From Heteronotia binoei (taxonomy: Eukaryota): DNA of 64,000 nucleotides. The notes under the pieces are model-generated. The model saw nothing but the letters and a program-made list of their open reading frames with translations. It was not told where the DNA came from and did not search any database. This document shows, one piece after another, positions 1 to 52,144 of this stretch (positions are counted from its first letter, which is position 1; each line of letters opens with the position of its first letter). A program made the position numbers and the translations under genes. The stretch spans positions 51,460,001-51,524,000 of the forward strand of contig NC_083224.1 of the NCBI RefSeq assembly GCF_032191835.1, in the 5' to 3' direction.

Positions 1-36
1 GTTGAAAAAAATCTATTATTTAGTATTCTGCAGTGT

Positions 37-415
37 TTGCCCCCCCAGTCGGAAGAACGAGACAACACGGTGTGTGGGTTTAAAACAGGGCAACTTTATT
101 AAAACCAACAGCATGGGGCAACCTAACTGACCGGACCGGCGAAGGGTACTCCACAACCCTTCCCGGACCCGGTGGGCGAACCACCCCGCCCCCAGCAGCA
201 GCCGAAAGACTAGCTGCTGCCAGGCCGGCCTGGTCGGGTGTAACCTCCAAATGTCGCAGCCGCCCTTACCGGAACGGCTCGCTAAACGAGGTAACCCTGT
301 GGCGAGAAGGACAGCAGAGGGCCGTTTTAACCCAGCTGCCGTCCATCATCCGCCACTTCCCTTACGGGGAAAACCACGGGTGGTCACCAAAACAAACCTG
401 CCTTCAAATCCCGCC
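37..415 (-). repeat. Split direct repeat B2 (379 bp), partner B1 at 755-1133
   Basis: Exact match at offset 718 from ttgcccccccagtc to aaatcccgcc. Mismatches occur at 36/754 and 416/1134. Confidence 0.95.
95..100 (-). terminator. AATAAA polyadenylation signal in B2 (duplicated in B1 at 813-818)
   Basis: Sense AATAAA followed by the GU-rich stretch gtgttgtctcgttctt. The signal is retained in both solo copies (51474-51479, 49036-49041). Confidence 0.7.
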
Positions 416-456
416 CAAATAAAGTTACCTAACGAGAAGCCCAGCCTCAAGACAAC

Positions 457-557
457 AGTACAAGGTAGGCGAAAAACATCCCAACTCAGGCCAATCAGAT
501 GGGATGAAAAAATTCCTACCTGGCCCCGAAACAACGGCGACCGGAGGAGCCTGTACT
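457..557 (-). ncRNA. Structured cis-RNA element in the A2-B2 spacer, ENE-like (U-rich internal loop between two stems)
   Basis: Sense AGUACA...AGGUAGG-AAUUUUUU-CAUCCCA-loop-UGGGAUG-UUUUUCG-CCUACCU-UGUACU. The same 101-nt span is present at 48536-48636 and 51844-51944 with compensatory changes. Confidence 0.7.
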
Positions 558-578
558 ATTGCAGGGTGGGAGGGAGGG

Positions 579-756
579 CCGAAAACGGCCAGCGAAGTGC
601 GTGGCCGGGGGCGCGGTCTGGCTAAAAAGCCCCATAACCACGCCCCCAAAGCTTCCCCGGATGACGGAGCCGTTTGCCTCGCTCCATCCGGGGAGGCAAA
701 CTCGGCCCCCGCCCTAAAGCCAGCTGAAGCAGGCACGGGCGGGAAGGGGCCGGATT
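579..756 (-). repeat. Split direct repeat A2 (178 bp), partner A1 at 6187-6364
   Basis: Exact match at offset 5608 from ccgaaaacggcc to ggggccggatt. Confidence 0.95.
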
Positions 757-1133
757 GCCCCCCCAGTCGGAAGAACGAGACAACACGGTGTGTGGGTTTA
801 AAACAGGGCAACTTTATTAAAACCAACAGCATGGGGCAACCTAACTGACCGGACCGGCGAAGGGTACTCCACAACCCTTCCCGGACCCGGTGGGCGAACC
901 ACCCCGCCCCCAGCAGCAGCCGAAAGACTAGCTGCTGCCAGGCCGGCCTGGTCGGGTGTAACCTCCAAATGTCGCAGCCGCCCTTACCGGAACGGCTCGC
1001 TAAACGAGGTAACCCTGTGGCGAGAAGGACAGCAGAGGGCCGTTTTAACCCAGCTGCCGTCCATCATCCGCCACTTCCCTTACGGGGAAAACCACGGGTG
1101 GTCACCAAAACAAACCTGCCTTCAAATCCCGCC
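755..1133 (-). repeat. Split direct repeat B1 (379 bp)
   Basis: Identical to 37-415. The ORF track gives the same 55-aa translation at 251 and 969. Confidence 0.95.
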
Positions 1134-1154
1134 ACCACAATGCCAAGCCTCAGC

Positions 1155-1756
1155 TTAGGCACTTGTGCCCACCGGCAGGCCTAAAGCCAGCCGAAGCCCC
1201 AGCTGTAGGTCCCGAAGAAAGGCCCTGTTGCCAGCCGCGGACAGGTGGACGCCATCTGGTCGATACAGGTCCGCCATATAAGACCTAATGCCCGGGTGGG
1301 GAAGGTAAATACCAAGGCCCCCGGCGAGCGCCCTCCGCATCGCCCTGTTAGCCTTGCGCCGAGCCCTCTCGACGCCGGCCGGGTTCAAAGCCGACCTCCA
1401 CACCCGCCGTGGGAGGATGGCGGACCACACTATCAACACCTCGGGCCACCTGCTCCGCACCACCTGGAGGTCCTCGATCGCCTGGTGAGACAGGGCCCTC
1501 CCCTGCACCAGGCCCAGATCGTTGCCCCCAAGGTGAATCACCAGTATCTGAGGCGGGAGACCTTCCCCCTCCCGGAACAAAAGCGGCAAGAGGCCGTCCC
1601 AACGTAGGCCACGGCGCCCCTGCCATTCCAACACTGCCCGCTCGCTGAGGCCCAACTGAGAACCAAAGGGGGACCGCCGAGCAAAATGGGCAGCCCAGAA
1701 TATCATGCTGTGGCCGGCGATCAAGATCCTTGTCCTCTCGCCGCTCGCCACAGCAC
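1155..1756 (-). CDS. SGNH/GDSL-type hydrolase (esterase) ORF of the Ngaro element; no initiating ATG, probably a spliced exon
   Basis: Blocks GHS (I), HLGGND (III) and DGVH (V) are present. The ORF-track start at 1751 is GTG. Branch point, polypyrimidine tract and CAG end at 1757. Confidence 0.85.
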
Positions 1757-1799
1757 CTGAAACAAGAAAGGTAACAATGTGAGAAAAACAACCAACCCC

Positions 1800-2681
1800 T
1801 CAATGGGTAATGGGGCGAACATAGCCCTTGTAAGCCGTGGACCTCCACCGTCCCACCTTCTGAATCGCGGGCCCCGGGTAGCCCATGGCTGCTGCCGTTG
1901 ATGCCGCCCCAATGCGGAAGGAATGAGTCCCAAAATGGACTCCCCCGAGGCCAAGCCTATCCAGGGCCCGGCTGGTTATAGACCAAAACTGAAATTTGGT
2001 CAATGGGGACCCATCCTCGTGCCGAAATAGAGGCCCCGCATCATCGCCCCGAACAGCGATATAATCCCTGAAGGCCGCCACCGGGCAGATATCCGTGTCA
2101 TCACACCCACCCAGTGAGATGCTCGTACCACGCTGTTTTTGATCCGTCTTTGACCTGCGTATTGAAATGACCACACAGTCAGCCTGCATTTTTACGTCAC
2201 CCAACTGCAGGGCCCGCTGAGAGCGGTCCTGCCGGGAGCTGACCACCAGCTCGCTCACTCTGAGCGCCCCAAAAAATGCCATCATGGACGCTGCCTGAAA
2301 AAGGGTCGCCTCAAAATTGGAAAAACAAACTGCAGGCCAGGCTGACCTGAGGCCCTTCAAAACCGTAGGAGAAAAGGGTTGCCTGTTGTCGGGTCGCGGA
2401 CCTTGCTCCCGCGCCCAACCCTCCAGCATTTTCCTCAATCTAAAATCATCGGTGCGATCGGGTAAACCCCTACTTTTTGCATGAAAAGCGAGGGCGGCCA
2501 ACTTGGCCCTGATCGTTTTAACAACAAGACCCTTACCTCTCAAGTGAACACAAAACTGCATGAGGTGGGCCACCGGGACCGGCCACCGGTTGGCCAACCC
2601 CACCAGCTCCCTAAAGGACCGGAACTGGTGTACCGAAAGATCGTAGGCCTTCCGGGTAGAAGGCGCCAGTGCCAGCATCAT
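1800..2681 (-). CDS. Tyrosine recombinase (YR)
   Basis: Catalytic motifs ALRVSEL (R), RRSKTDQ (K), HSFRIGAA (HxxR) and GRWRSTAYKGY (W, Y). The N-terminal APSTRKAY helix domain is present. The first in-frame ATG, at 2681, overlaps the RT stop codon. Confidence 0.93.
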   Translation of the reverse strand: MMLALAPSTRKAYDLSVHQFRSFRELVGLANRWPVPVAHLMQFCVHLRGKGLVVKTIRAKLAALAFHAKSRGLPDRTDDFRLRKMLEGWAREQGPRPDNRQPFSPTVLKGLRSAWPAVCFSNFEATLFQAASMMAFFGALRVSELVVSSRQDRSQRALQLGDVKMQADCVVISIRRSKTDQKQRGTSISLGGCDDTDICPVAAFRDYIAVRGDDAGPLFRHEDGSPLTKFQFWSITSRALDRLGLGGVHFGTHSFRIGAASTAAAMGYPGPAIQKVGRWRSTAYKGYVRPITH

Positions 2682-4531
2682 TGCTCTGTTGGCCTCGAGT
2701 CTCCAAGCCGCCACATCTCTGGGGGCATCCGAGCCGGCAGGAGATCGGCCTCTGGTGCAAGAAGGCGGAAGCGCTCCATCTGCCGACGAGACAGAGCATC
2801 CGCCACCCCATTGCAAACTCCGGGCACATGCTTAGCACAAAACAAAACATTTAACCTTAAACAGCTTAACACAAAGGCCCTCACAAGGCGCATAACCGGG
2901 ACTGACTTGGAAGACAACGTGTTGATCACGTGTACCACAGCTAAATTGTCACACCAGAAGTGGACCACCCGGTTTGCCAAAGCAGGGCCCCATAACCTAA
3001 TTGCAACTACTATAGGAAAAAATTCCAAGAAAGTTAAATTCCTGCAGAGGCCGCTAGCAAGCCATTCGGTGGGCCACACCTCCGCACACCAGTGGCCCCG
3101 AAAGTAAACACCGAAGCCGACCGCCCCGGAGGCATCGGATGTGACTTGGAGTTCAGCTTCCAGTTTCAACTCCTCGCGCCAAAAGGACACCCCGTTGAAA
3201 TTGGCCAGAAAACGCTCCCAGACCTGCAAGTCAAGCCGCATGCCCTGAGTAACCCTCACTCGATGGTGGGGGCGGCGCAAACCCGACATAGCGTCGCAAA
3301 GGCGCCGCAAAAATGCTCTCCCCGGGGCGACCACCTTGCAGGCGAAGTTCAAGTGGCCCACAAGAGTCTGGAGCTCAAGGAGAGACAGCTTACGTTGGCC
3401 CTTGGCGGCGGCCAACATCTGCTTCAGCCTATTAATTTTGTCAGCAGGTAACCTGGAAGCCTGATCAACCGAATCCAACTCAATGCCCAAGAAGGTTAAT
3501 CTGGTCACCGGGCCTTCGGTCTTTTCAGGGGCAAGCGGTAGACCCAGCTCAGCCGCCAAGCCCTGGAAGGACTGGAGCAAGTGGGCGCATTGGCCCGTCC
3601 CTTGGCGGCCTACAAACAAAAAATCGTCCAAATAATGGACCGTAGAGGCGGAACCGGATCGTGCTCGCAAGGCCCATTCAATGAAAGTGCTAAAACGCTC
3701 AAAAGCTGAGCAGGAGATAGAACATCCCATTGGCAGGGCTCGATCCATATAAAACTTCCCCTCAAAGGTGAAACCCAGGAGCTCGAAGTCTTGCGGGTGT
3801 ACCGGCAAAAGGCGAAATGCTGACTTAATGTCGCATTTCGCCATTTCGGCCCCCGGGCCACAACTTCGCACGATCGCGACAGCCTGATCAAATGAGGTGT
3901 ATCTCACTGAACAGAGGGATTCAGGTATGGCGTCATTAACCGAGCCGCCCTTAGGATAGGAGAGGTGGTGAATCAACCGAAACTCCCCAGGTGCCTTCTT
4001 AGGCACTACCCCCAACGGGGATACCCTCAAATTGGGAACTGGGGGGCTGTCGAAAGGGCCTAAAACACGGCCCTCCTTGCATTCCTTCAGGATCTTTTCA
4101 CGAACCACCGTTTCCATACCTTTGACCGACTGCAAGTTCCTGGCCATACAGGGGCCCCTGGGACCCTGAAAAGGGATGCGGAAACCATAACAAAACCCAT
4201 CTAACAAATAAACTCGGTCGCGGGAGCGCGGGTAACCAACTAACAACTTCTTAAGGACCGTCACCTTGATGGGGCTGGGGCCCTTTTCCAACTGCTTGGG
4301 AGCTGCTATTACTCCCGGTCCGCTTGGCGCCGGCTCGGGGCTTTGTTTTGTTACATGAGACCAGGGAATGGGACCCGCCACACAGGGGGCACTCGTGCCT
4401 GTATTTACACGGCTTCCTGTTACAACCCCCTTGGGACGAGAAATCCCAACACACCAGCCGGGGTTGAACCGGCTGCCCCGCCGACGCGCGGGTACCAGAT
4501 GCGGATACATGCCTGTTAACGAGGTGGCCAC
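2678..4531 (-). CDS. Reverse transcriptase / RNase H
   Basis: RT motifs KCDIKSAFRLLP, LPMGCSISC and YLDDF. RNase H motifs TSDASG, LEFFPI, CDNLAVV and NGVADALSR. The frame opens at 4621, the first ATG is at 4510, and it lies +1 relative to gag. Confidence 0.95.
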   Translation of the reverse strand: MATSLTGMYPHLVPARRRGSRFNPGWCVGISRPKGVVTGSRVNTGTSAPCVAGPIPWSHVTKQSPEPAPSGPGVIAAPKQLEKGPSPIKVTVLKKLLVGYPRSRDRVYLLDGFCYGFRIPFQGPRGPCMARNLQSVKGMETVVREKILKECKEGRVLGPFDSPPVPNLRVSPLGVVPKKAPGEFRLIHHLSYPKGGSVNDAIPESLCSVRYTSFDQAVAIVRSCGPGAEMAKCDIKSAFRLLPVHPQDFELLGFTFEGKFYMDRALPMGCSISCSAFERFSTFIEWALRARSGSASTVHYLDDFLFVGRQGTGQCAHLLQSFQGLAAELGLPLAPEKTEGPVTRLTFLGIELDSVDQASRLPADKINRLKQMLAAAKGQRKLSLLELQTLVGHLNFACKVVAPGRAFLRRLCDAMSGLRRPHHRVRVTQGMRLDLQVWERFLANFNGVSFWREELKLEAELQVTSDASGAVGFGVYFRGHWCAEVWPTEWLASGLCRNLTFLEFFPIVVAIRLWGPALANRVVHFWCDNLAVVHVINTLSSKSVPVMRLVRAFVLSCLRLNVLFCAKHVPGVCNGVADALSRRQMERFRLLAPEADLLPARMPPEMWRLGDSRPTEQ

Positions 4532-5768
4532 TATCAGACCTATCCCCAGAGTTGGGCTTGGCCGGTGACATAAGCTGGAGCCACAACTGCTGGTGAATGT
4601 GGTCCCATGGGATGGTAGGGTTCAATGCCGCCCTCATCCGGAACTCCTCGTCATACTGCAACCATGCAGCGCCGGAGAAGTCCGTGTAGGCCTTAAAAAT
4701 TATATCCAGGTATTGAAAAAGAGGTGCGGCCCGTAAAGGCTGCGCCCGCGCGACAACCCCGGCATAGATTAAGAAACCGGGCAACCAATTGGACCAGTTA
4801 CGCTCAACCTTGCGGCGTTTGATCCTCTCTTTGTCCTTCTCGTCTAAATCTTCTTTTTCTTTCTTTTCTAACTCCCGATAGAGAAGGGCAAAGACATCAA
4901 CGTATTCACCCCGGAGAATTTTTTCCCGGGTGGCCGGCGTGAGGTGATCACCCAAAGGCATAGCGGTGTCACCAAAAGGGCGGCAATGGAAGGGGACTGA
5001 TCCCAACAAATTTGGTGGGCAGCCCCACCCCCCCCACTGAGGAACCGTCCAACCCGGTGCAGGGATGCTACCCCATTGAAAACCCCACGGCAAGGAACCC
5101 GAGGGGGGCGGTTGCCCACCGGAACCAAGAGGGGCTGAAGGAGTAGGCGTAGACCCTGCTCCGAGTGGAGGGGTCCAAGGCAAAATCTGTCCCTGACCCG
5201 AAGAGCCAGCTGCAGCTGCTGCGTTGAAAGCAAACATAGGACCAACAGAAGACCCCTGGCCAAGGTTGGCCAGAGGGAGTGCCGGGCTTGTCGGACCCCA
5301 GGGGTTCAAACCCCCCCACGGCCAAGAGCCAGGAACGCACGGGAGGCCTTGCTTACCGTCTGGCACCACACCTGCAGGAGCCCCAGCCGGGACGGCGCCA
5401 CCAACATCCTCCGGGCGAGCAGGCACTTCTGGATGATTACCTTCATCTGCATCCGAACTGTCGTCCTGAGGTTCTGGTCCCGCTCCACCTGATGGCCCAG
5501 GCAGGGCCGCCATCTCCTGCAAAGATGAGAGACGAGCCAGGACCTCCTGCTCGAAGGCCCTGGTGGACGTCCTAGCTGCCTTACGGCCCCGCCCAGGGAG
5601 GGATTGCACATCCACTCCATGGTGCCTTTCTAAAGCCTCAAGGCTGGCTACAATAGCCTGCCTAGTTTGGGCCTCCTGTTCAACTCCAGGGGGCCCACTG
5701 GGAATGGGCCTTTTCTGGCCAGCCTTTAAGGGCTGCTTGCCCTTAGATTTCCCTTGCCCCTTAGGCAT
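4251..5768 (-). CDS. Gag-like ORF1 (505 aa from MPKGQGK)
   Basis: Pro/Gly-rich middle and a helical YxxxFRxRAA core. C-terminal Cys/His cluster CWDF...CNRKPCKYRHECPLCGGSH, typical of DIRS/Ngaro Gag. The ORF-track extension to 6086 has no ATG. Confidence 0.85.
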   Translation of the reverse strand: MPKGQGKSKGKQPLKAGQKRPIPSGPPGVEQEAQTRQAIVASLEALERHHGVDVQSLPGRGRKAARTSTRAFEQEVLARLSSLQEMAALPGPSGGAGPEPQDDSSDADEGNHPEVPARPEDVGGAVPAGAPAGVVPDGKQGLPCVPGSWPWGGLNPWGPTSPALPLANLGQGSSVGPMFAFNAAAAAGSSGQGQILPWTPPLGAGSTPTPSAPLGSGGQPPPSGSLPWGFQWGSIPAPGWTVPQWGGWGCPPNLLGSVPFHCRPFGDTAMPLGDHLTPATREKILRGEYVDVFALLYRELEKKEKEDLDEKDKERIKRRKVERNWSNWLPGFLIYAGVVARAQPLRAAPLFQYLDIIFKAYTDFSGAAWLQYDEEFRMRAALNPTIPWDHIHQQLWLQLMSPAKPNSGDRSDSGHLVNRHVSASGTRASAGQPVQPRLVCWDFSSQGGCNRKPCKYRHECPLCGGSHSLVSCNKTKPRAGAKRTGSNSSSQAVGKGPQPHQGDGP

Positions 5769-6186
5769 AATGATTCCCAGGCACTGGCAAAAAGCCTCTA
5801 GCAGGACCCAGCAGCACCTGTGTACCAGGCTGATAATTGTAGAGAGGAAGAGAAACAAGCAACCCCGACCACCAGCCCCCAGAGGGAAGAGTCCTAGGCT
5901 CCAATTACACCCAAAACTCCCTGGAATGCAAGCTATAACGGCAGCAGACCAAAAACAGGAAGGGGTGGGTGGGTGGGGGAAAAACGAAACCTGGCGCGGC
6001 CGATAGCCGCGCGTGCGAAGCCCGCCCGTCAGCTGTTCAGCGGCGAAACGGGTCCCAATTGCGGCGAAGAAAAAAGCGGCCGTCACAGGGAAGCCCTCGT
6101 CGACTGCAGCGGCTCACACGCCAACCCGACGACGCTGCAAGGCCCAGCCGCGCCCCGACGGAGGTAAGCCGAACGCTGCTTCCCAC

Positions 6187-6364
6187 CCGAAAACGGCCAG
6201 CGAAGTGCGTGGCCGGGGGCGCGGTCTGGCTAAAAAGCCCCATAACCACGCCCCCAAAGCTTCCCCGGATGACGGAGCCGTTTGCCTCGCTCCATCCGGG
6301 GAGGCAAACTCGGCCCCCGCCCTAAAGCCAGCTGAAGCAGGCACGGGCGGGAAGGGGCCGGATT
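6187..6364 (-). promoter_or_regulatory. Split direct repeat A1; probable element promoter
   Basis: Identical to 579-756. The sense strand has GC/GT boxes (gggcggggg, gggggcgtgg) followed by a T/A patch (ctttttag; ttttataag in the 52 kb copy, ctatatc in the 48 kb copy). The promoter role is inferred. Confidence 0.6.
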
Positions 6365-12219: not shown

Positions 12220-12746
12220 TGTCACGTTCTCAGGGTGCAGGCAGGCAGGAGTTCAAACCCAGTCCAAGGTCAAAGTCCAGGAAGTTAAGCAGGAGCCAAG
12301 TCACCAATGCAGAATCACAAACCGGAATCAAAAGTCAATATCCAAAAGGTCAGAGTGCCAAGGAAATCAAGCAGGTCAGGATCAGGAAGGAGCGTGGATG
12401 CAAGCCAGAGAATAGATTTGTTGCTTCCACAAGGTTACCAGGTCCTAGGTGGGAGCTATAGGGGAGTCTCAATCAGCCTGCTCCCTGGGTGGGAGTGACT
12501 CTGCTAGAACTCAGGGCTGAGAGATCTGAAGCATCATGTCTTCGCTCTGAAAGTTCTTTCCGGAGCTTGCTTCAAACTCTTGAGATGGGAGGAGGAGAGC
12601 TTGGAGGAGATTGATCGTCAGCAACTGACACTGGTGACTGGAGAGTGATTGATGGCCCAGTTGCTGTTTGTTCAGCTGAGGAACTGGCTGGCAACTCTTC
12701 CAGTTCTGTTAACCCTTCCAGCTCCTCCTCATCAGGGCTCATAACA
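12220..12746 (-). mobile_element. 3' LTR of a Ty3/Gypsy element (527 bp)
   Basis: Sense TGTTATGAG...GTGACA (TG..CA), directly after the polypurine tract at about 12750-12775. Confidence 0.8.
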
Positions 12747-14650
12747 CTATCCCCCCCGCAGGACCGCCCCCCCCCAGACAAGCCAGGCCGGTCAGGGTAG
12801 ACCATGAGGAACTGCTGCACAAGGTCAGGGGCGTGTAGGTTGTCCGTGGGTTTCCATGAACGGTTCTCGGGGCCATAGCCTTCCCAGTCCACGAGGTACT
12901 GGAGGTCCCCGTGGTGGATTTGGGAGTCCAGGGGCTGGTGGACCTTGACCAGGACAGGAGGCGGCGGCACTGGAGGTGGCAGTTGGATGGGATCCGGTGG
13001 TGTAGCAGGAACAAGGAGGGACTGGTGGAAGACTGGGTGGATGCGGAGGGTAGCCAGCAGATGTAGCCAGAAAGCAACGGGGTTGATTTGGTCTGTGTTC
13101 AGGTAAGGCCCCGCGAAGCGAGGGTCCAGCTTGCGAGACTGGCCAGGCCAACGCAGGTAATGGGTGGAGAGCCAGATGTAGTCCCTGGGCTTCAGTGGGG
13201 GCCCCACCTGTTGCTTTTGGACAGTGGCTATCTTGTAGGTCTCTTTAGCCTGTTGGAGTTGCTCTCGGAGCAAGTCCTGGAGAGCCCGAATTTCCTGCAG
13301 GTGCGCATCAGCAGCAGGGACTGCTGTGGGGGGCAGGACTGCGGGGAAGAAGTGAGGGTGGTACCCATAGGTGGCAGCAAATGGGATCTGTTGCTGGATG
13401 CATGTACGGCGTTGTTGTAGGCAAACTTGGCCAGGGGTAGCAAGGCGGCCCAGTCATCCTGCTGGTAGCTGGTGTAACAATGCAGGTATTGTGCTAGCGT
13501 GGCGTTGGCGTTGGTGCGTTCGGTCTGCCCATCTGTTTGGGGATGGTACACTGAGGACAAATGCACCTTGGTGCCAAAGCTGGAGTGCAGGGCTTGCCAG
13601 AATCAGGAGGTGAACTGGGGACCTTGGTCTGAGATCAAGTGTGCCGGGAGCCCATACAGGCAAAAGGTATGCTGGAGATAGAGCTGGGCTGTTTCAGGAA
13701 ATGGGAAACGGGGGTGGCTTGGAACATGGAACAAGTGAGCCATCTTGGTGAAGAGATCCACCATCACCAAGATGCAAGTGTGCCTCTTGGACCTGGGGAG
13801 CTCGGTGATAAAGTTCAGGGAGATGATGTCTTAGGGTCCTGCAGGCGTGGGATGGGGATGCAAAAACCCTGGGGGCTTGGCCAGTACATCCTTGGCCCAC
13901 CGGCAGACCTCACAGGAACCAACATAACGGGCCACATTGGCACGGACACAAGGCCACCAGAACTCCTGCATGAGCAGGGTGGCTGAAGTGCCCCGCTGGA
14001 GGGGAGTCATTGTCAAGCATGCGGGTTCAATGACGAGTCGAAGTTGATACAAAGACTACGTTTATTGATAGACCGATACTTTGGTGTAACAGGTTCTTGA
14101 GAGTAATGCTGCCAATACATTGATACAATACTTTTAAGGCTTACTTCAAAAGGATTCCAAGGGATGGGGGTGAGGGGTAGCACTCACACATAAACTATCA
14201 TAAATGTCTACGTTCCCATAGTGTTATCAGGACTTCGTCCTTGCTTTCCCCAGATGTCTCGTACTCCCTTACAGGAATGTATGGGAAGGTGCTGATTACT
14301 TGGTTTCAGTTGTCACTACTTCTAATTTTAAGCCATAAAGCAAGATGGGAGGAAGGGAAAGAATAACAAGCTAACAAAGTCGGATCCTCCATGATACTTC
14401 ACAGACCAGGTTTAGGCAGGACCCTATAACAATCAATTATCAATGGAATTTCACCATGCTTGACAGTCATGGGTCAGATGGAGCACGTCAGCCTGGAGGG
14501 GTCCTGGAGGCATGTGTAGGCACCCATGGTGCAGGAGGAGACCTTGGCAGGTAGAGAGGTCCCCCGCCGGGCCATCTTGCACTTCCAGGAGGCATTGCTG
14601 AGCCCAGGGGTCTTGGGTCTGACTGACCTGGATGTCTGTTGTCTTTCCCT
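12747..14650 (-). pseudogene. Ty3/Gypsy (chromoviral) integrase remnant: HHCC zinc finger, core, GPY/F module and chromodomain
   Basis: LHLTHD...WWPCVRANVARYVGSCEVC; [16 protein letters not shown]; FAGPY...IHPVFHQSLL; QYLVDWEGYGPENRSW. Frameshifted and 5'-truncated. Confidence 0.9.
14011..14465 (-). mobile_element. Solo LTR (455 bp) inserted in the Gypsy integrase zinc finger
   Basis: Perfect 11-bp terminal inverted repeat tgtcaagcatg / catgcttgaca. 5-bp TSD gtcat. Minus-strand AATAAA near 14062. Confidence 0.9.
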
Positions 14651-23745: not shown

Positions 23746-25035
23746 AGCCCAATATGGTGTAGTGGTGAAGAGCAACAGACTCTAAACTGGAGACCCAGAT
23801 TTGCTTCCCTACTCCTCCACATGAAGCCTGCTGAGTGACTTTGGGCTCTCTCAGAACTGGCTTAGTAATAGGAAGCAGAGAGTCAGTATAAATGGGCAGT
23901 CTTCGCAGTGGAGGACGGTAAGCAGTGGGGTGCCGCAGGGCTCGGTACTGGGTCCCATGCTCTTTAACTTGTTCATAAATGATTTAGAGTTGGGAGTGAG
24001 CAGTGAAGTGGCCAAGTTTGCGGATGACACTAAATTGTTCAGGGTGGTGAGAACCAGAGAGGATTGTGAGGAACTCCAAAGGGATCTGTTGAGGCTGGGT
24101 GAGTGGGCGTCAACGTGGCAGATGCGGTTCAATGTGGCCAAGTGCAAAGTAATGCACATTGGGGCCAAGAATCCCAGCTACAAATACAAGTTGATGGGGT
24201 GTGAACTGGCAGAGACTGACCAAAAGAGAGATCTTGAGGTCGTGGTAGATAACTCACTGAAAATGTCAAGACAGTGTGCGTCTGCAATAAAAAAGGCCAA
24301 CGCCATGCTGGGAATTATTAGGAAGGGAAATGAAAACAAATCAGCCAGTATCATAATGCCCCTGTATAAATCGATGGTGCGGTCTCATTTGGAGTACTGT
24401 GTGCAGTTCTGGTCGCCGCACCTCAAAAAGGATATTATAGCATTGGAGAAAGTCCAGAGAAGGGCAACTAGAATGATTAAAGGGCTGGAGCACTTTCCCT
24501 ATGAAGAAAGGTTGAAACGCTTGGGACTCTTTAGCTTGGAGAAACGTCGACTGCGGGGTGACATGATAGAGGTTTACAAGATAATGCATGGGATGGAGAA
24601 AGTAGAGAAAGAAGTACTTTTCTCCCTTTCTCACAATACAAGAACTCGTGGGCATTCGATGAAATTGCTGAGCAGAAAGGTTAAAACGGATAAAAGGAAG
24701 TACTTCTTCACCCAAAGGGTGATTAACATGTGGAATTCACTGCCACAGGAGGTGGTGGCGGCCACAAGTATAGCCACCTTCAAGAGGGGTTTAGATAAAA
24801 ATATGGAGCACAGGTCCATTAGTGGCTATTAGCCACAGTGTATGTGTGTATATAAAATTTTTTGCCACTGTGTGACACAGAGTGTTGGACTTGATGGGCC
24901 GTTGGCCTGATCCAACATGGCTTCTCTTATGTTCTTATGTTCTAGAACTCTTTCAGCCCCTCCTCCCTCACAAGGTTGTGGAGAGAGGAAGGGAAGGATA
25001 TTGTAAGCCAATCTGAGACTCCTTCGGATAAATGC
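23746..25035 (+). mobile_element. Squam3-type SINE split by a CR1 insertion
   Basis: The head at 23746-23858 resumes at 24944 with agaactctttcagcccc...gtaagccaatctgagactcc. Confidence 0.7.
23859..24943 (+). mobile_element. Young 5'-truncated CR1 LINE (ORF2 RT C-terminus open from 23861 to 24832)
   Basis: GVPQGSVLGP, KFADDTKL, HLEYCVQFWSPHL, LEKRRLRGDMI. (TTATGTTC)n tail. 6-bp TSD agaact. Confidence 0.95.
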
Positions 25036-26620
25036 CAGCTCTTCTTCTCCTTCTCCTTGGTCTGTTCAGTACTATAGCCACCGCGACAGACTGACTTTGT
25101 AGTTAGACTATATTTTGGGGGGAAGTTCCTTGGAGGCTAATTCTGGGTTCCTCAGAGAAAAGATCATTAATAGCAGACTGCCTTCTTACTTGAGAGACAG
25201 CTTGCCCTTTATTACAAATCTTCAGCAATGAGCATCTGCCAGCAGAAATCTATTATGTTCTCAGGTGTGCTCTCTGTTCGTGTGAAATGTACAGGCCTGG
25301 CTAGACACTGCATGAATTGGTGATGAGCCCTACAGCATTTCTCTAAGTACTTTGCAGTATGTGGGGGGTTTAATGGCAGGCAAATCGACACAGAAAGCAG
25401 ACTGCTTAAAAAGCACTGTTATGCAGTGTAGCAGAGTAGTGGAGGGGGAAGGCTGTGAAAATCTTGTGTAAAAGTATTTTAAAAGCTCTTTGACTATTCT
25501 ACTGCCTTTGCACATTTGCTCTCTTATTCTCACTCACGCAAACACAAATAGATACAAGCCATCCCACTCATTCTAGGAATTTCTCCTCTCTAGCAATATA
25601 AAATTGGGACAGTTGTGTGTGTGAGTACTTGATGTTCCATCCACTGAGGGGTACCCAGTTAAGTATTTTTCTGAGGAAAGCAATTACTCCATTTTCTGGG
25701 AACACAGTAATGACCTTTTTAGACCAGCGTTTCTTGGGTAGGGACTATCTCTAAGGCAGAATGTGGATGACTGGGGTAGGGGCAGACTCTGTCCCCTTAA
25801 TTTGATTGCTTGGTAGATAGTAAGCCTTTCTCCCTTTCAGTCCCTTGGAGGAACTCTGAGTAAATTTTTCCTCTAGCCAGAAGTGGAGGTGGATTCCTCC
25901 TTCCCTCTTCATAGGCAACAATGTGGCAAATGAAGTTTGGCATTGGTAAGTGTAAAATGATGCACATTGGGACAAAAAAAAAAATCTTCACTTCAAGTAT
26001 AGTACTAATGGGGTCTCATGTTGCTGAGACTGAAAGGGGAAATTATCTTGGGGTTGCAGTGGATAGCTCAATTAAAGTGTCAACCCAGTGTGCTGCAGCA
26101 GTGAAAAAGGCAAAATCTATATCAGGATTACTAGGAAAGTGATTGTGAATAAAACAGCCAATATTGTCTATTGTATATGCTCCTGTATATGTCTATGGTG
26201 TGGCCTTGGAATATTGTGTATAGTTTTGGTCACCTTTGCAGAGTTGGAAAAAGTACAGAGGAGGACAGCCAAAATTATTAAGGGGTTGGAGCATCTTCCC
26301 TATGAGGAAAGGCTGAAGAGTTTGAACATTTTAGTTTAGAAAAGAGATTACTGTGGTGGGGGGGGCAATGATAGATGTTTATCAAATTTTGCATGGGGTG
26401 GAGAGCATCGACAAAGAGCTATTTTTTCTCCTTCTCCCCAGATACTTGAAATTGAGGGCATCCAATGAAGCTGATCATCAGTAGGTTCAAGACAGACCAA
26501 AGGAAATAGTACTATACACAAAGAGTGATTGTGGAATTCACTGCCAGAAGGTGTAGTGATGGCCACAGAAATAAACAGTTTTAAAAGGGATTAGATAGAT
26601 TCATGAAGGGTGTCTATCTC

Positions 26621-48334: not shown

Positions 48335-49100
48335 AATTCGGCCCTGCCCTGGCCAAGCCACGCAGTGGCTTCAGGCTGCGGGCTCGCCCCCTTTGCCTCC
48401 CTGGAGGATGAAGGCTGCCCAGATTCCCGGAAATACAGGAACTGGAGGAGGGCGGAGCGTCGGGGCTATATCAGTCCCAGCCCCGCCCTCCATGGCACAG
48501 TTTTTGCACGGCTGTCAGCCCACCCACCCTTTAGTAGTACAGGCTCTGGCCGGTCGCCTTGTTGGAGGCCAGGTAAGAATTTTTTCACTTTCACTTGATT
48601 GTCTGTTGGTGGAGTGTTTTTCGCCTACCTTGTACTGCAATTAGGAGGTGGAAGGTTAGGAAAGTTGATAGGTTTAAAGTTTATTGGCCACTTGGCAGAA
48701 GGAGGATGGGGTTACTGTTATCGGTGACCACCCAGGGCTATGCACCACTTGGGTGCAGGCAATCTGCAGGAGCAGCAGATGGGCTATATGCCTCAGTGCC
48801 GCATAATGCAGATCATAATGATGGCTCCATCCAGGACCGGCTCTTTCGGGTGATCAAGGCTGAGAACAGGGTGAGGGCATTTGGCCCAGCCAGCCCAGCA
48901 TTAGCCACATTATGTTGGCTCATGCCGGGGGCAGGGTGGCTCGCCCATTTCTGGACAGGGAAGGGTCATGGGATGACCCTGGGGCTTGTCCAGCTTAGGT
49001 AGCCCTTGCCATACAAGATAAGTCACAGTTATGTTAATAAAGTGGCCCGTTTACCCATATACATGTGTCAGCCTCTTTATTTCGACTGGGGGGGGGGGAA
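48335..49100 (+). mobile_element. Solo Ngaro A-spacer-B unit (766 bp), highly diverged
   Basis: Starts aattcggccc and ends gactggg...gaa. Conserved spacer at 48536-48636 and AATAAA at 49036. Confidence 0.85.
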
Positions 49101-50333
49101 TTAGATTTTAAAAAAACACTAATTAAAGTAAACAAACATTTTCTGAAAAATAAAACATTTTAAAATCTACCCTGATTCACATATATATGGTAATAGATCC
49201 AGATCATTGCACTGAATTGTCTTGATAGATGTACCCCCTGAATGATACCTTGGCCTACACATGCAACATCTAAGAGCAAATTTGTTGTTGTTATTTCCTT
49301 TGTCTGTACTTTTGGCAGCAAGGCTTCTAATGTAGACGTCCCAAAATGAAGCAAAGCAGGTTTATGAATTCTACCATCTGGTAATTTAGTATGATATGTA
49401 TGAGAAAAGCGTAAACCTCTTTTTTTCACCACTACCATGCTACAAGTCATGAACTCTAGAGGAAGTTGTCTTTGCTCAGATGCATCACTTCTTCACGGTT
49501 TAAAACATAATATTTACTTATATCCTTCTCTTCCTACTCAGAGTTGGCTTATTCAGGATGAGACCTAAAATAATAATAACAAAGCAACAGCTTTGGAAGA
49601 AACCTGTTTCCACTGTAGGTTTTGTGCTCACATACTTATTGTGTGTACAAATTCTAGAGAGTTTACAGGCATGGAGATACATTCTCCGCTATCACAGTGT
49701 TGCAAATATTCAATATCATAGAGTGCACCTCTAATTTCTTTTCTAATTAGCAGTTCCACACTGGGGAACCAATAGTCACAGGGAAAATATGTAGCTTTTC
49801 CTATTTCATAACCTTTTACCTTCAATATCCCTTCTACATTTTTAATTTAGCAGTTATGGTCCACATCTGGTACTAGGCAGTATTGGATTAACATCCAGGT
49901 CACATCCTTACTTCCCTTCCGGTGACGAAGCTGTAACACAGGATTTCAAAGCCATTACATTTGTCTCACCACCTGCGATAACGGTGCCTTGACATTTATG
50001 TAGTGGTTTCTGAAAGTAATGAATTATATCCCTCTGAGGCACAGTGAACAGACGGATGTGTATGAATTACATACCTCTGTATTTGTGAATTGAGTAGGAC
50101 AAAGTGTACAGAACAGTTACAATATGGCATCACTAATATCGGCAACTATATGAATTACACAGAGCAGCAACAAAACCAGTCTCTTAAATTTTGTAGCAGG
50201 ATGCGATGAGTTTGCATGATTTTGACCCAAGTACAATTGAAATACTAACAGCAATCCTGTGTTATAAGTAGCTGGGGGAACCTGTCTTTTTCTGGCTAAA
50301 GGACTCAAGGTGCTTGAGCCAATTTGTTATAGG

Positions 50334-50605
50334 CAAGGGTTGCCAAGTCCCTTGCAGCCTCTGGCTGTACCATAGAGCTTCCCCTCCCAAATGGCTAGAG
50401 CGTCCAGAAAAACCATAGAGTTTTCCCAGAAACGCCTAGAGTGGCTGTCACGCGATGTCACCAGTGTGATGATGTCATTTCTGGGTAACGTCATGGTGCC
50501 AGTGATGTCGGGGGAGGTTCCCCCTGCCAGCCCAATGTGGGCTGGTGGGTTGGGAACCTCCCGGGCAGGGGAATCCCTACCCGGACTGGGGGCTTGGCAG
50601 CCCTA
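50334..50605. mobile_element. hAT MITE (TAGGGTTGCCA family)
   Basis: agggttgccaagtccc / gggggcttggcagcccta. Imperfect 8-bp flanks gttatagg / gttctagc. Confidence 0.7.
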
Positions 50606-51414
50606 GTTCTAGCTCATCGTCATTTGAAAATTGTTGATGAAAACATTGTTACTGGTTATTGTTGTTTATTCACATATAGGTGTATGCTAAGGCTGTCAGT
50701 TAATTAAACAAATGGCAGTGCTGGCCTAAACCAAATGCTGGATAAATTGTGCTGTGGAGATTGAGGGAATCAAAGTAGGCCTCCAAACACACGCACACAG
50801 ATTGGGGGGGGGGCACAATCAAACAAAATAGAAACCCCGGAGTAGGTAAAATGTTCTGTCCAAAGGCAGATGTTGCAAGGGATCTTTCTCTAATGACAAG
50901 GGTGAGTGAAAACAGTACAAAAAGATGTTGAATCTGCTGTCTCTTTCCCTTTTTCTAAAGATTACTGTTGCTTTTTGAGACATTTGAATCTATGTAATTA
51001 TATACACTTTTCCTAATACCTTGCTTTCTCTAAAATCTATGAGTGATATATGCTTCTTTTCCTTGTTTCTCCCATCTTGTTCTGTTGAACTGAGTGAATA
51101 TTATATGTTCTGGTGTTTGTTATTTGTTCAGTAAATACAGATGTAAAAATGCACCTGGAAACATTCTTCATGTCATGACTGCTGTAGTTCCAGCCTTCCA
51201 CTCACAAACACTTCTGGGATTCCTGTCCACATTTAGTGTTGGAAATGGCTGTTCTGCACAGTCTTGCAGTGGGTAAAGGAGTGCTGAAGGATTCTGTTGG
51301 TTAGAAAAACAGGAAGGGAGAAGCAGAGGCAAATGACAAGTCATAACAAAAAACCTAGCTGTAGCGTAAAGCCAAAACAAAAAAAATAGCCCTTGCAGAA
51401 CCTTTTGATGATTA

Positions 51415-52144
51415 TTGCCCCCCCACTCAGAAGAACGAGACAACACGGTATATTGGGTAATAAACAGGGCAACTTTATTGAACAAGAACAGCCTGGGGCA
51501 AACTAACTACTGCCGGACAGGCCAAGGGAAACACCCCAGACCCTTCCCTGTCCGGAAGGGCGAGCCACCCAGCCCCCAACAGCAGCCCGTTAAACCGGCT
51601 GCTGCCAGGCTGGCGCAGGCAGGGTATACCCCCAAATGGCACTGCCGCCCACCCAGGAACGGCCTGCCATAGGAGGGAACCCTATAGCGGGCAAGACAGC
51701 AGACAGCTGTACAGCCCCGCTGCCATCCGATCCCACTACTTCCCTTAAAACCGGGAAAACCATTGGTGCACACTGAAAACCTGGAAACCTAGTTAAACTC
51801 CTGCCAATAAAGCTACCAAACCTAACCCAACCTTAAGGCAAACAGTACAAGGTAGGCGAAAAACATCCTAACCATGGCCAATCAGTTAGGATGAAAAAAT
51901 TCCTACCTGGCCCCGTAAACTCGGCGACCGGAGAAGCATGTACTATTGCAGGGTGGGAGGGTGGGCCAAAATCACCAGCGAAGTGCGTGGCTCTGGGCAT
52001 GGCTGGGCTTATAAAAGCCCCCAAACCACGCCCGCAACGTCCCCGGATGGAAGAGGACCATTTGCCTCGGCTCCATCCGGGGAGGCAAACGCGGCCCCCG
52101 CCCTATGCCGCCGGACGTCGGTGCGTGCGGGAAGGGGCCGGATT
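51415..52144 (-). mobile_element. Solo Ngaro A-spacer-B unit (730 bp), moderately diverged
   Basis: Starts ttgcccccccc..gaagaacgagacaacacgg and ends gggaaggggccggatt. Colinear with 37-756. Confidence 0.92.

Follow-up and report, generated by a model that had tools for sequence, protein, structure and literature searches.

Solo A-spacer-B units in the Heteronotia binoei genome as probable Ngaro recombination remnants carrying putative cis-signals of their parent

The closest described relatives of the element considered here are the SGNH-bearing Ngaro retrotransposons (DIRS order) of amphibians and squamates, exemplified by Xenopus DIRS-53_XT, which are laid out as A1-ORFs-B1-A2-B2 (ORFs, open reading frames), encode gag, reverse transcriptase/RNase H (RT/RH), tyrosine recombinase (YR), and SGNH proteins in that order, and lack a methyltransferase (PMC9210276; here and below, papers are cited from extracts of their text). 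An element of this same plan lies in the stretch of DNA that we analyzed (the window), 64,000 nucleotides of the Heteronotia binoei genome (assembly GCF_032191835.1, contig NC_083224.1, positions 51,460,001 to 51,524,000 of the forward strand), together with two isolated A-spacer-B units, the solos, which are our subject. The spacer between A2 and B2 of this parent-type element carries two signals, a putative ENE (element for nuclear expression) plus a C-rich tract at the edge of A2, and neither is described for the DIRS-53_XT type in the extract cited (PMC9210276).

Isolated units resembling the solos are known from two other systems. Solo AB repeats occur among the Ngaro elements of Cafeteria (PMC8547959), and SIRE of Trypanosoma cruzi corresponds to the A2-B2 region of VIPER, with ~30 bp between the repeats (PMC6681497); in the extracts of both reports, an origin by recombination is proposed and mobility is left open (PMC8547959, PMC6681497). 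A solo unit as such is a known kind of Ngaro remnant. What distinguishes the present units from Cafeteria solo AB and SIRE is a vertebrate host and a spacer of 160 to 175 nt (the range of the two solos and the parent) that is structured and bears an ENE-like fold.

Described ENEs provide the second comparison. The ENE in PAN RNA of KSHV (Kaposi's sarcoma-associated herpesvirus) is a single-domain U-rich loop between short stems, with five U.A-U triples and A-minor contacts possible (PMC7583470), an anatomy that is matched here; unlike that of PAN, the present loop sits on a three-way junction, has a donor-like site in its lower stem, and is known from sequence alone. The ENE of the Arabidopsis retroelement Evade (Copia93) raises RNA stability and mobility, and its triplex depends on the U's of the loop and on the G-C pairs beside it; its location, within the 3' spacer of a retroelement and upstream of a terminal repeat supplying the poly(A) site, is shared by the loop studied here (PMC12501189). 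Compared with Evade and the other transposon ENEs, which reviews report from plants, fungi, slime mould, and stickleback retroviruses, the present loop belongs to a YR element rather than an LTR/Copia (LTR, long terminal repeat) or hAT element, has a single rather than a double domain, occurs in a reptile, and lies between two internal repeats, hence being specific to read-through RNA. Among animals, the reviews give transposon ENEs for stickleback retroviruses only, and a reptile YR ENE would add a further element order and host group to those that use this defense against decay. We found no literature report of an ENE in Ngaro elements; the slime-mould and fungal entries of the Tycowski 2016 survey might include YR elements.

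Two solo units and their parent

Sequence comparison identifies both units as solo A-spacer-B remnants of squamate Ngaro subfamilies, and we consider it probable that they are products of recombination whose conserved parts (C-tract, ENE, and poly(A) signal) are cis-signals of the parent. In a self-comparison of the window, each matches A2-spacer-B2 of the parent (756-37) over its full length. The units, at 48335-49101 on the plus strand (solo 1) and 52144-51414 on the minus strand (solo 2), begin with the opening base of A and finish with the closing base of B, and each has AAT at both ends, the same trinucleotide as at the B1/A2 junction of the parent. The same-sense order of A, spacer, and B that a first-pass annotation had recognized in both relics is borne out. 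A trinucleotide shared by both ends of the inserted unit is expected from YR integration (PMC7192593). The right end of the parent itself (window 36-38, minus strand) reads AAA rather than AAT, and the crossover core may be only AA.

By split-repeat layout and domain order, the parent classifies as a squamate Ngaro YR retrotransposon. It occupies 37..6364 on the minus strand, as does each of its parts listed here, and looks intact by self-comparison, ORFs, and profile matches. Its repeats are A1 (6187..6364) and A2 (579..756), each 178 bp, and B1 (755..1133; AATAAA at 818-813) and B2 (37..415; AATAAA at 100-95), each 379 bp; A1 and A2 are 100% identical, as are B1 and B2. Four open frames lie between A1 and B1. 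A gag-like frame (4251..6113, stop to stop) is assigned by position, with a CCCH-type zinc-finger pattern seen by eye and no Pfam match; it is followed by RT (2678..4621; PF00078, YLDD) with an RNase H-like region recognized by motifs, a tyrosine recombinase (1800..2831; PF00589), and an SGNH/GDSL hydrolase (1155..1799; PF13472, E 1.4e-9). A profile search of the parent ORFs gave no methyltransferase match. The named proteins nearest to the recombinase are from geckos (74%, then ~60 to 62%), with other squamates after these. The unique spacer between A2 and B2 (416..578, 163 bp) holds the C-tract (578-564), a structured core (560-454) that includes the ENE-like loop (512-472), and the donor-like site CAG/GTAGGA.

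Outside the core the solos are only 50 to 78% identical to the parent, and we therefore assign them to different subfamilies. Solo 1 belongs to a diverged Ngaro subfamily and looks the older, with a CpG observed/expected ratio of 0.37; solo 2 has a ratio of 0.62 and ~78% identity to the parent A2-spacer-B2. Across the three pairwise comparisons, identity in the core is 89, 80, and 76%, compared with 76, 52, and 53% in A and 75, 58, and 56% in B. No ORF remnants were found near the solos by tblastn of the four ORF proteins or by a profile search of the window, tblastn returning only the parent.

Promoter-like features of A are present in both solos. In solo 1 (A, 48335..48518, plus strand), GGGCGG at 48450 and TATATC at 48467 precede an initiator (Inr)-like site, with a start predicted at 48497; in solo 2 (A, 51966..52144, minus strand), GC boxes at 52103 and 52033 and TATAAG at 52013 precede an Inr-like site, with a start predicted at 51984. 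The TATA-like words stand 29 to 30 nt upstream of the Inr-like site. GC boxes are likewise found in the A repeat of the parent; the Inr-like site falls ~20 bases short of the end of A, and the start predicted for the parent A2 is near 598. The TATA-like patch claimed for A is real in the solos, whereas the intact parent reads TTTTTAG at that place. The B repeats of solo 1 (48694..49101, plus strand, start approximate; AATAAA at 49036-49041, a GU/U-rich tract, and a G-run end) and solo 2 (51414..51805, minus strand; AATAAA at 51479-51474 and a GU-rich tract) agree with the parent in placing AATAAA and the GU-rich tract ~350 to 400 nt downstream of the ENE-like loop in all three copies. As a separate observation, TTTATT, which is AATAAA on the opposite strand, occurs 6 to 14 bases before B in all three copies (423-418, minus strand; 51811-51806; ~48680-48685) and in the related loci L022 and L048, five of the 14 spacers examined in all; its role might be that of a poly(A) signal in antisense or of a U-rich enhancer acting on the B2 site.

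The ENE-like fold of the spacer

The cores of the parent and of solo 2 (51841..51947, minus strand) are predicted to form the same structure, in which an outer stem and a side hairpin accompany a 7-bp lower stem, a loop of U6 opposite U5, and an upper stem, with a C-G closing pair above the loop and G-C pairs below it. All three copies have the U6/U5 runs, which are predicted unpaired at 1.0 in the parent and solo 2; those of solo 2 span 51899-51859 in an intact single-domain ENE-like loop. Solo 1 (48533..48638, plus strand) keeps the outer stem, the side hairpin, both U-runs (U6 at 48580-48585, U5 at 48617-48621), and a donor-like CAG/GTAAGA, with an A.C mismatch in the lower stem; its ENE form lies 2 kcal/mol above the minimum. 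The pairing probability of this stem is 0.11 in the solo 1 core and 0.01 in its whole predicted RNA, compared with 0.75 to 1.0 in the other two copies, and in the full predicted RNA of solo 2 the ENE has a folding probability close to 1. Fold z-scores are -3.7 for both the parent and solo 2 and -1.5 for solo 1, all from predictions that leave out triplex energy. According to these models, the ENE-like fold is intact in the parent and solo 2 and damaged in solo 1. The earlier claim that core and AATAAA are kept despite divergence stands for AATAAA (three of three copies) and for the sequence of the core (76 to 89%) and fails for the mismatched ENE stem of solo 1.

An ENE descriptor run over both strands of the 64 kb matched twice, at the parent and solo 2, and missed solo 1; among shuffled sequences it matched in 0/30 at the strict setting and 3/30 at the loose one. 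Pairing is preserved in 79 of 81 cells across the three copies (97.5%), and three pairs are changed on both sides. From these data we judge the spacer core to be probably an ENE in a reptile YR retrotransposon.

Several points weigh against that reading. The same covariation is reached by 14 of 500 shuffles; it is a signal drawn from three copies that also supplied the structure, and so offers thin support. The ENE lies ~380 nt away from the predicted tail, and a triplex at the loop is a prediction from the fold only. The lower stem hardly varies in sequence, and this near-invariance suggests a further, sequence-level role. Rfam gave no match at gathering score in the window, its two chance-level matches over 51700-52100 having E values of 1.8 and 2.7.

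The fold does not extend to distant relatives. Our sample comprised the best 80 of 564 metagenome loci plus eight genome-bin loci, with Ngaro-type recombinases ~28 to 41% identical, and in these related loci neither the descriptor nor a covariance model found an ENE; all 11 distant Ngaro spacers lack one. We tried and rejected the ENE as a general Ngaro feature: 98,321 bases of element tails held no sense match at three settings, and the loosest descriptor setting gave two matches against 3.6 expected. Run over 89 sources, the covariance model recovered only its three training copies, the next match (16.8 bits, E 0.17) lying outside any spacer, and the exact pattern of the core occurred in none of the metagenome contigs and none of the viral contigs. 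A YR alignment found no relative in the viral contigs, and a search with a single distant YR found none in the genome contigs. Because it is absent from the related loci, a sample without frog and fish elements, we take the ENE to be a lineage-specific gain.

A C-rich tract at the edge of A2

A second signal is far more widespread. In 13 of 14 assessable elements, whose recombinases share 32 to 37% identity with that of the window and as little as 27% among themselves, the first bases of the spacer form a C-rich tract, at the A2 3' edge. With repeat boundaries set by BLAST, blind to the C-motif, 48 loci yielded 12 with an A-type repeat, three of which ran to the contig end; in eight of the remaining nine, the 14 bases after A2 contain 9 to 11 C, compared with 2 to 4 after A1. 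Only 0.3 to 1.9% of 14-base windows in the tails are equally C-rich. The tract recurs in all five tandem or circular contigs (L022, L048, L081, L082, and L085), which come from two other sources; L081, L082, and L085 are the three of eight genome-bin loci with a usable repeat, and the 27-nt spacer of L082 is nearly all C-tract. The exact C-motif occurs in sense in nine of 62 tails and in antisense in two, against 0.4 expected; relaxed to one mismatch, it occurs in sense in 20 of 63 tails and in antisense in 19 and is uninformative.

On the opposite strand, the tract has a G4Hunter-type score of 1.2 to 1.8, within the top 0.03 to 1% of windows (boundaries of L024 and L066 placed by hand). In the parent and in solo 2 (51951..51965, minus strand), four C3 runs give four G3 runs of G-quadruplex type on the opposite strand; solo 1 (48519..48529, plus strand) has three, with a score of 1.0.

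Some data count against the generality of the tract. No tract follows the 55-base repeat of L016, which lies at a contig start, and in L053, where the contig end truncates the repeat, none is seen between the repeats. Of the eight blind positives, one is the window and the other seven share an assembly, two of these seven belonging to a single family.

Repeat edges of LTR elements coincide with priming signals. The C-tract lies at a repeat edge as well, and for that reason we regard it as probably a reverse-transcription stop or priming signal, a candidacy drawn from its sequence and position. The version that we tentatively prefer, at somewhat less than even chances, is that plus-strand copying of B1-A2 would stop at the tract, folded as a G-quadruplex on the minus-strand template. 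By analogy it could instead be the binding place of the minus-strand primer, which is possible and on balance doubtful; a different role, such as a protein site, appears slightly less likely still. The reverse-transcription primer of DIRS-1 is stated to be unknown (PMC7192593). A C-tract shared by very distant Ngaros offers a handle on how YR retrotransposons prime reverse transcription and rebuild their ends; were the G-quadruplex reading true, it would answer how split-repeat YR elements do the latter. We found no mention of a C-motif at the A2 edge in the papers examined, although Goodwin and Poulter 2004 or Poulter and Butler 2015 may already hold one.

Other features of these edges deserve record. 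Self-priming by a G-rich word after A1 was rejected as a general mechanism, since, of the 10 elements printed, that of the window alone has the word in this place; in the parent, GGGTGGGA (6188-6181, minus strand), within the leader that follows A1, is complementary to the C-tract and is not common to distant elements. The spacers of L060, L066, L074, and L080 have a long G-run 20 to 40 bases past the C-tract, which could pair with it or be a purine tract. A GGCGG(G/A)AT-like word opens B in four of the 12 elements printed (window 1133 and 415; L048, L066, L080), and a G-rich word does so in most of the others, possibly as a second edge signal of the B1-A2 block. In L022, L048, L081, L082, and L085, two copies of the B+A block flank a spacer, an arrangement that a circular intermediate or a tandem array would be expected to show.

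What the conserved parts do, and for whom

The ENE and the A2-edge C-tract, the notable results of this analysis, belong to the biology of the parent. RNA started in A1 could end at B1 or at B2, whose poly(A) signals, supplied by B, are identical. The RNA that reaches B2 would alone contain the B/A junction, the tract, and the second B, all needed for rebuilding both ends, and the ENE would likewise be confined to transcripts that continue through B1 as far as B2. Because only this RNA has both the ENE and the rebuilding parts, the simplest role that we infer for the ENE is protection of the replication template: by binding the poly(A) tail, it would selectively shield the RNA competent for replication, in the manner of the Evade ENE, and the C-tract would probably fix the point at which reverse transcription of the B1-A2 block halts or begins. 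The place of the ENE between A2 and B2 suggests how the element favors its full-length RNA above transcripts that terminate at the identical B1 site. For the origin of the solos, the simplest route would be a recombination event joining A1 with A2, or one joining the left end with the B1/A2 junction inside the element. An intronless RNA of ~500 nt, as first proposed for these units, is indeed conceivable, each unit having, in sense order, an A that resembles a promoter, an ENE-like fold, and a poly(A) signal; the predicted RNAs measure 532 and 564 bases from the solos, and one of 524 bases could start from the parent A2 itself. Since they would lack the B/A junction, such RNAs could not replicate by this route, and the solos would be dead ends that decay, some perhaps giving an RNA of 520 to 565 nt as a by-product.

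Other roles for the core compete with that of an ENE. It might act mainly as a poly(A)-site switch, in which the nascent donor-like CAG/GTA(G/A)GA binds U1 and silences B1 until closure of the stem hides the donor and frees B2, a role that can coexist with that of an ENE. The donor-like site lies within the lower stem in all three copies, 294 nt past the AATAAA of B1 and 419 before that of B2; it pairs with the U1 5' end at a computed -11 kcal/mol, the best donor score in the parent has a p of 0.036 against shuffles, and foamy virus offers a precedent in the extract cited (PMC3694450). We nevertheless hold this switch to be unlikely as the main role: B itself has an equally scoring site, the donor scores are approximate, the invariant U-runs are left unexplained, and donor-like sites are not enriched in any of nine distant elements (p 0.19 to 0.86), so that a conserved splice donor in distant spacers is unsupported. 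A separate observation is that the leader just 3' of the parent A1 contains CTTACCT (6168-6162, minus strand), a complement of the donor-like strand in the stem of the ENE. The U-rich loop could also be a packaging or protein-binding signal that merely resembles an ENE, as its failure to match Rfam, a three-way junction not described for PAN, and its absence from the distant spacers would allow; opposed invariant U-runs and G-C-rich flanking stems upstream of a retroelement 3' poly(A) site are, however, the described anatomy of an ENE, and we give such a signal little credence.

For the solos themselves, the first-pass annotation had proposed functional PAN-like long noncoding RNA (lncRNA) genes, transcribed, ENE-stabilized cassettes or donors of an ENE and 3' end to host RNAs, here considered as units kept by selection. 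The TATA/Inr spacing in both solos, the ENE and AATAAA in order, and the confident fold of solo 2 speak for it, as does the core, where 0/8 CpGs are decayed compared with 19/39 outside it when the solos are pooled (Fisher p = 0.015; CpGs changed in other ways, 14 and 10, dropped). Individually the solos give 0/5 and 0/3 compared with 13/30 and 6/9 (p 0.13 and 0.18), and the 12 core differences of solo 2 from the parent spare the U-runs and the named stems, bar one compensated pair. Undecayed CpGs and this spared structure fit constraint after insertion and, to that extent, tell against solos that are only parental relics; the CpG signal is confounded by lineage-level selection, the differences mixing subfamily history with decay in place. 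Conservation relative to the parent mostly records lineage history in such diverged subfamilies. Solo 1, with an uncompensated stem mismatch, one C3 run lost, and its low CpG ratio, leans toward neutrality after insertion. No host exon was recognized among the 45 of 61 long frames scanned, which matched only two retroelement fragments, in a scan that would miss short exons. All conserved parts are explicable by the life cycle of the parent, and we regard functional lncRNA cassettes as improbable; the caveat originally attached to them, that conservation reflects selection on active ancestors, is the better reading. Ordinary solo LTRs hold a promoter and a poly(A) signal, and the contrast once drawn with them was overstated. 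A review also places ENEs within the LTRs, both 5' and 3', of elements from plants and fungi (PMC13541005). A further reading, that the solos were inserted as such after the recombinase split a two-junction replication circle and the small A-spacer-B circle integrated at AAT, accounts equally well for the precise AAT ends; the openness about SIRE origin and mobility (PMC6681497, extract) and the tandem or circular B-A blocks of five related contigs agree with it. No extra step is called for if identical 178-bp repeats undergo homologous recombination, and direct insertion seems to us rather unlikely.

On the preferred reading, as recombination remnants with parental cis-signals, the solos are an ordinary product, yet they scatter promoter-ENE-poly(A) units through the genome, and co-option is conceivable. 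In its boldest form, the spacer would be a control module, with a tract-set strong-stop end and an ENE with a U1 switch gained in squamates, and, A2 being an identical promoter, thousands of solos as well as intact elements would make the same ~520-nt triplex-protected RNA, a PAN-like transcript family dispersed in lizards and regulating the element or co-opted by the host; we think this quite unlikely. With one intact-looking Ngaro and a pair of solos from other subfamilies lying inside 52 kb, solo density in the genome may well be high.

The window also contains remains of other retroelements. A Gypsy-like element is represented at 12575-13453 (minus strand) by a chromodomain and a Tf2-type SH3 fragment, and an RT fragment lies at 23825-24829 (plus strand), in a region that has a 66% copy at 25948-26597.

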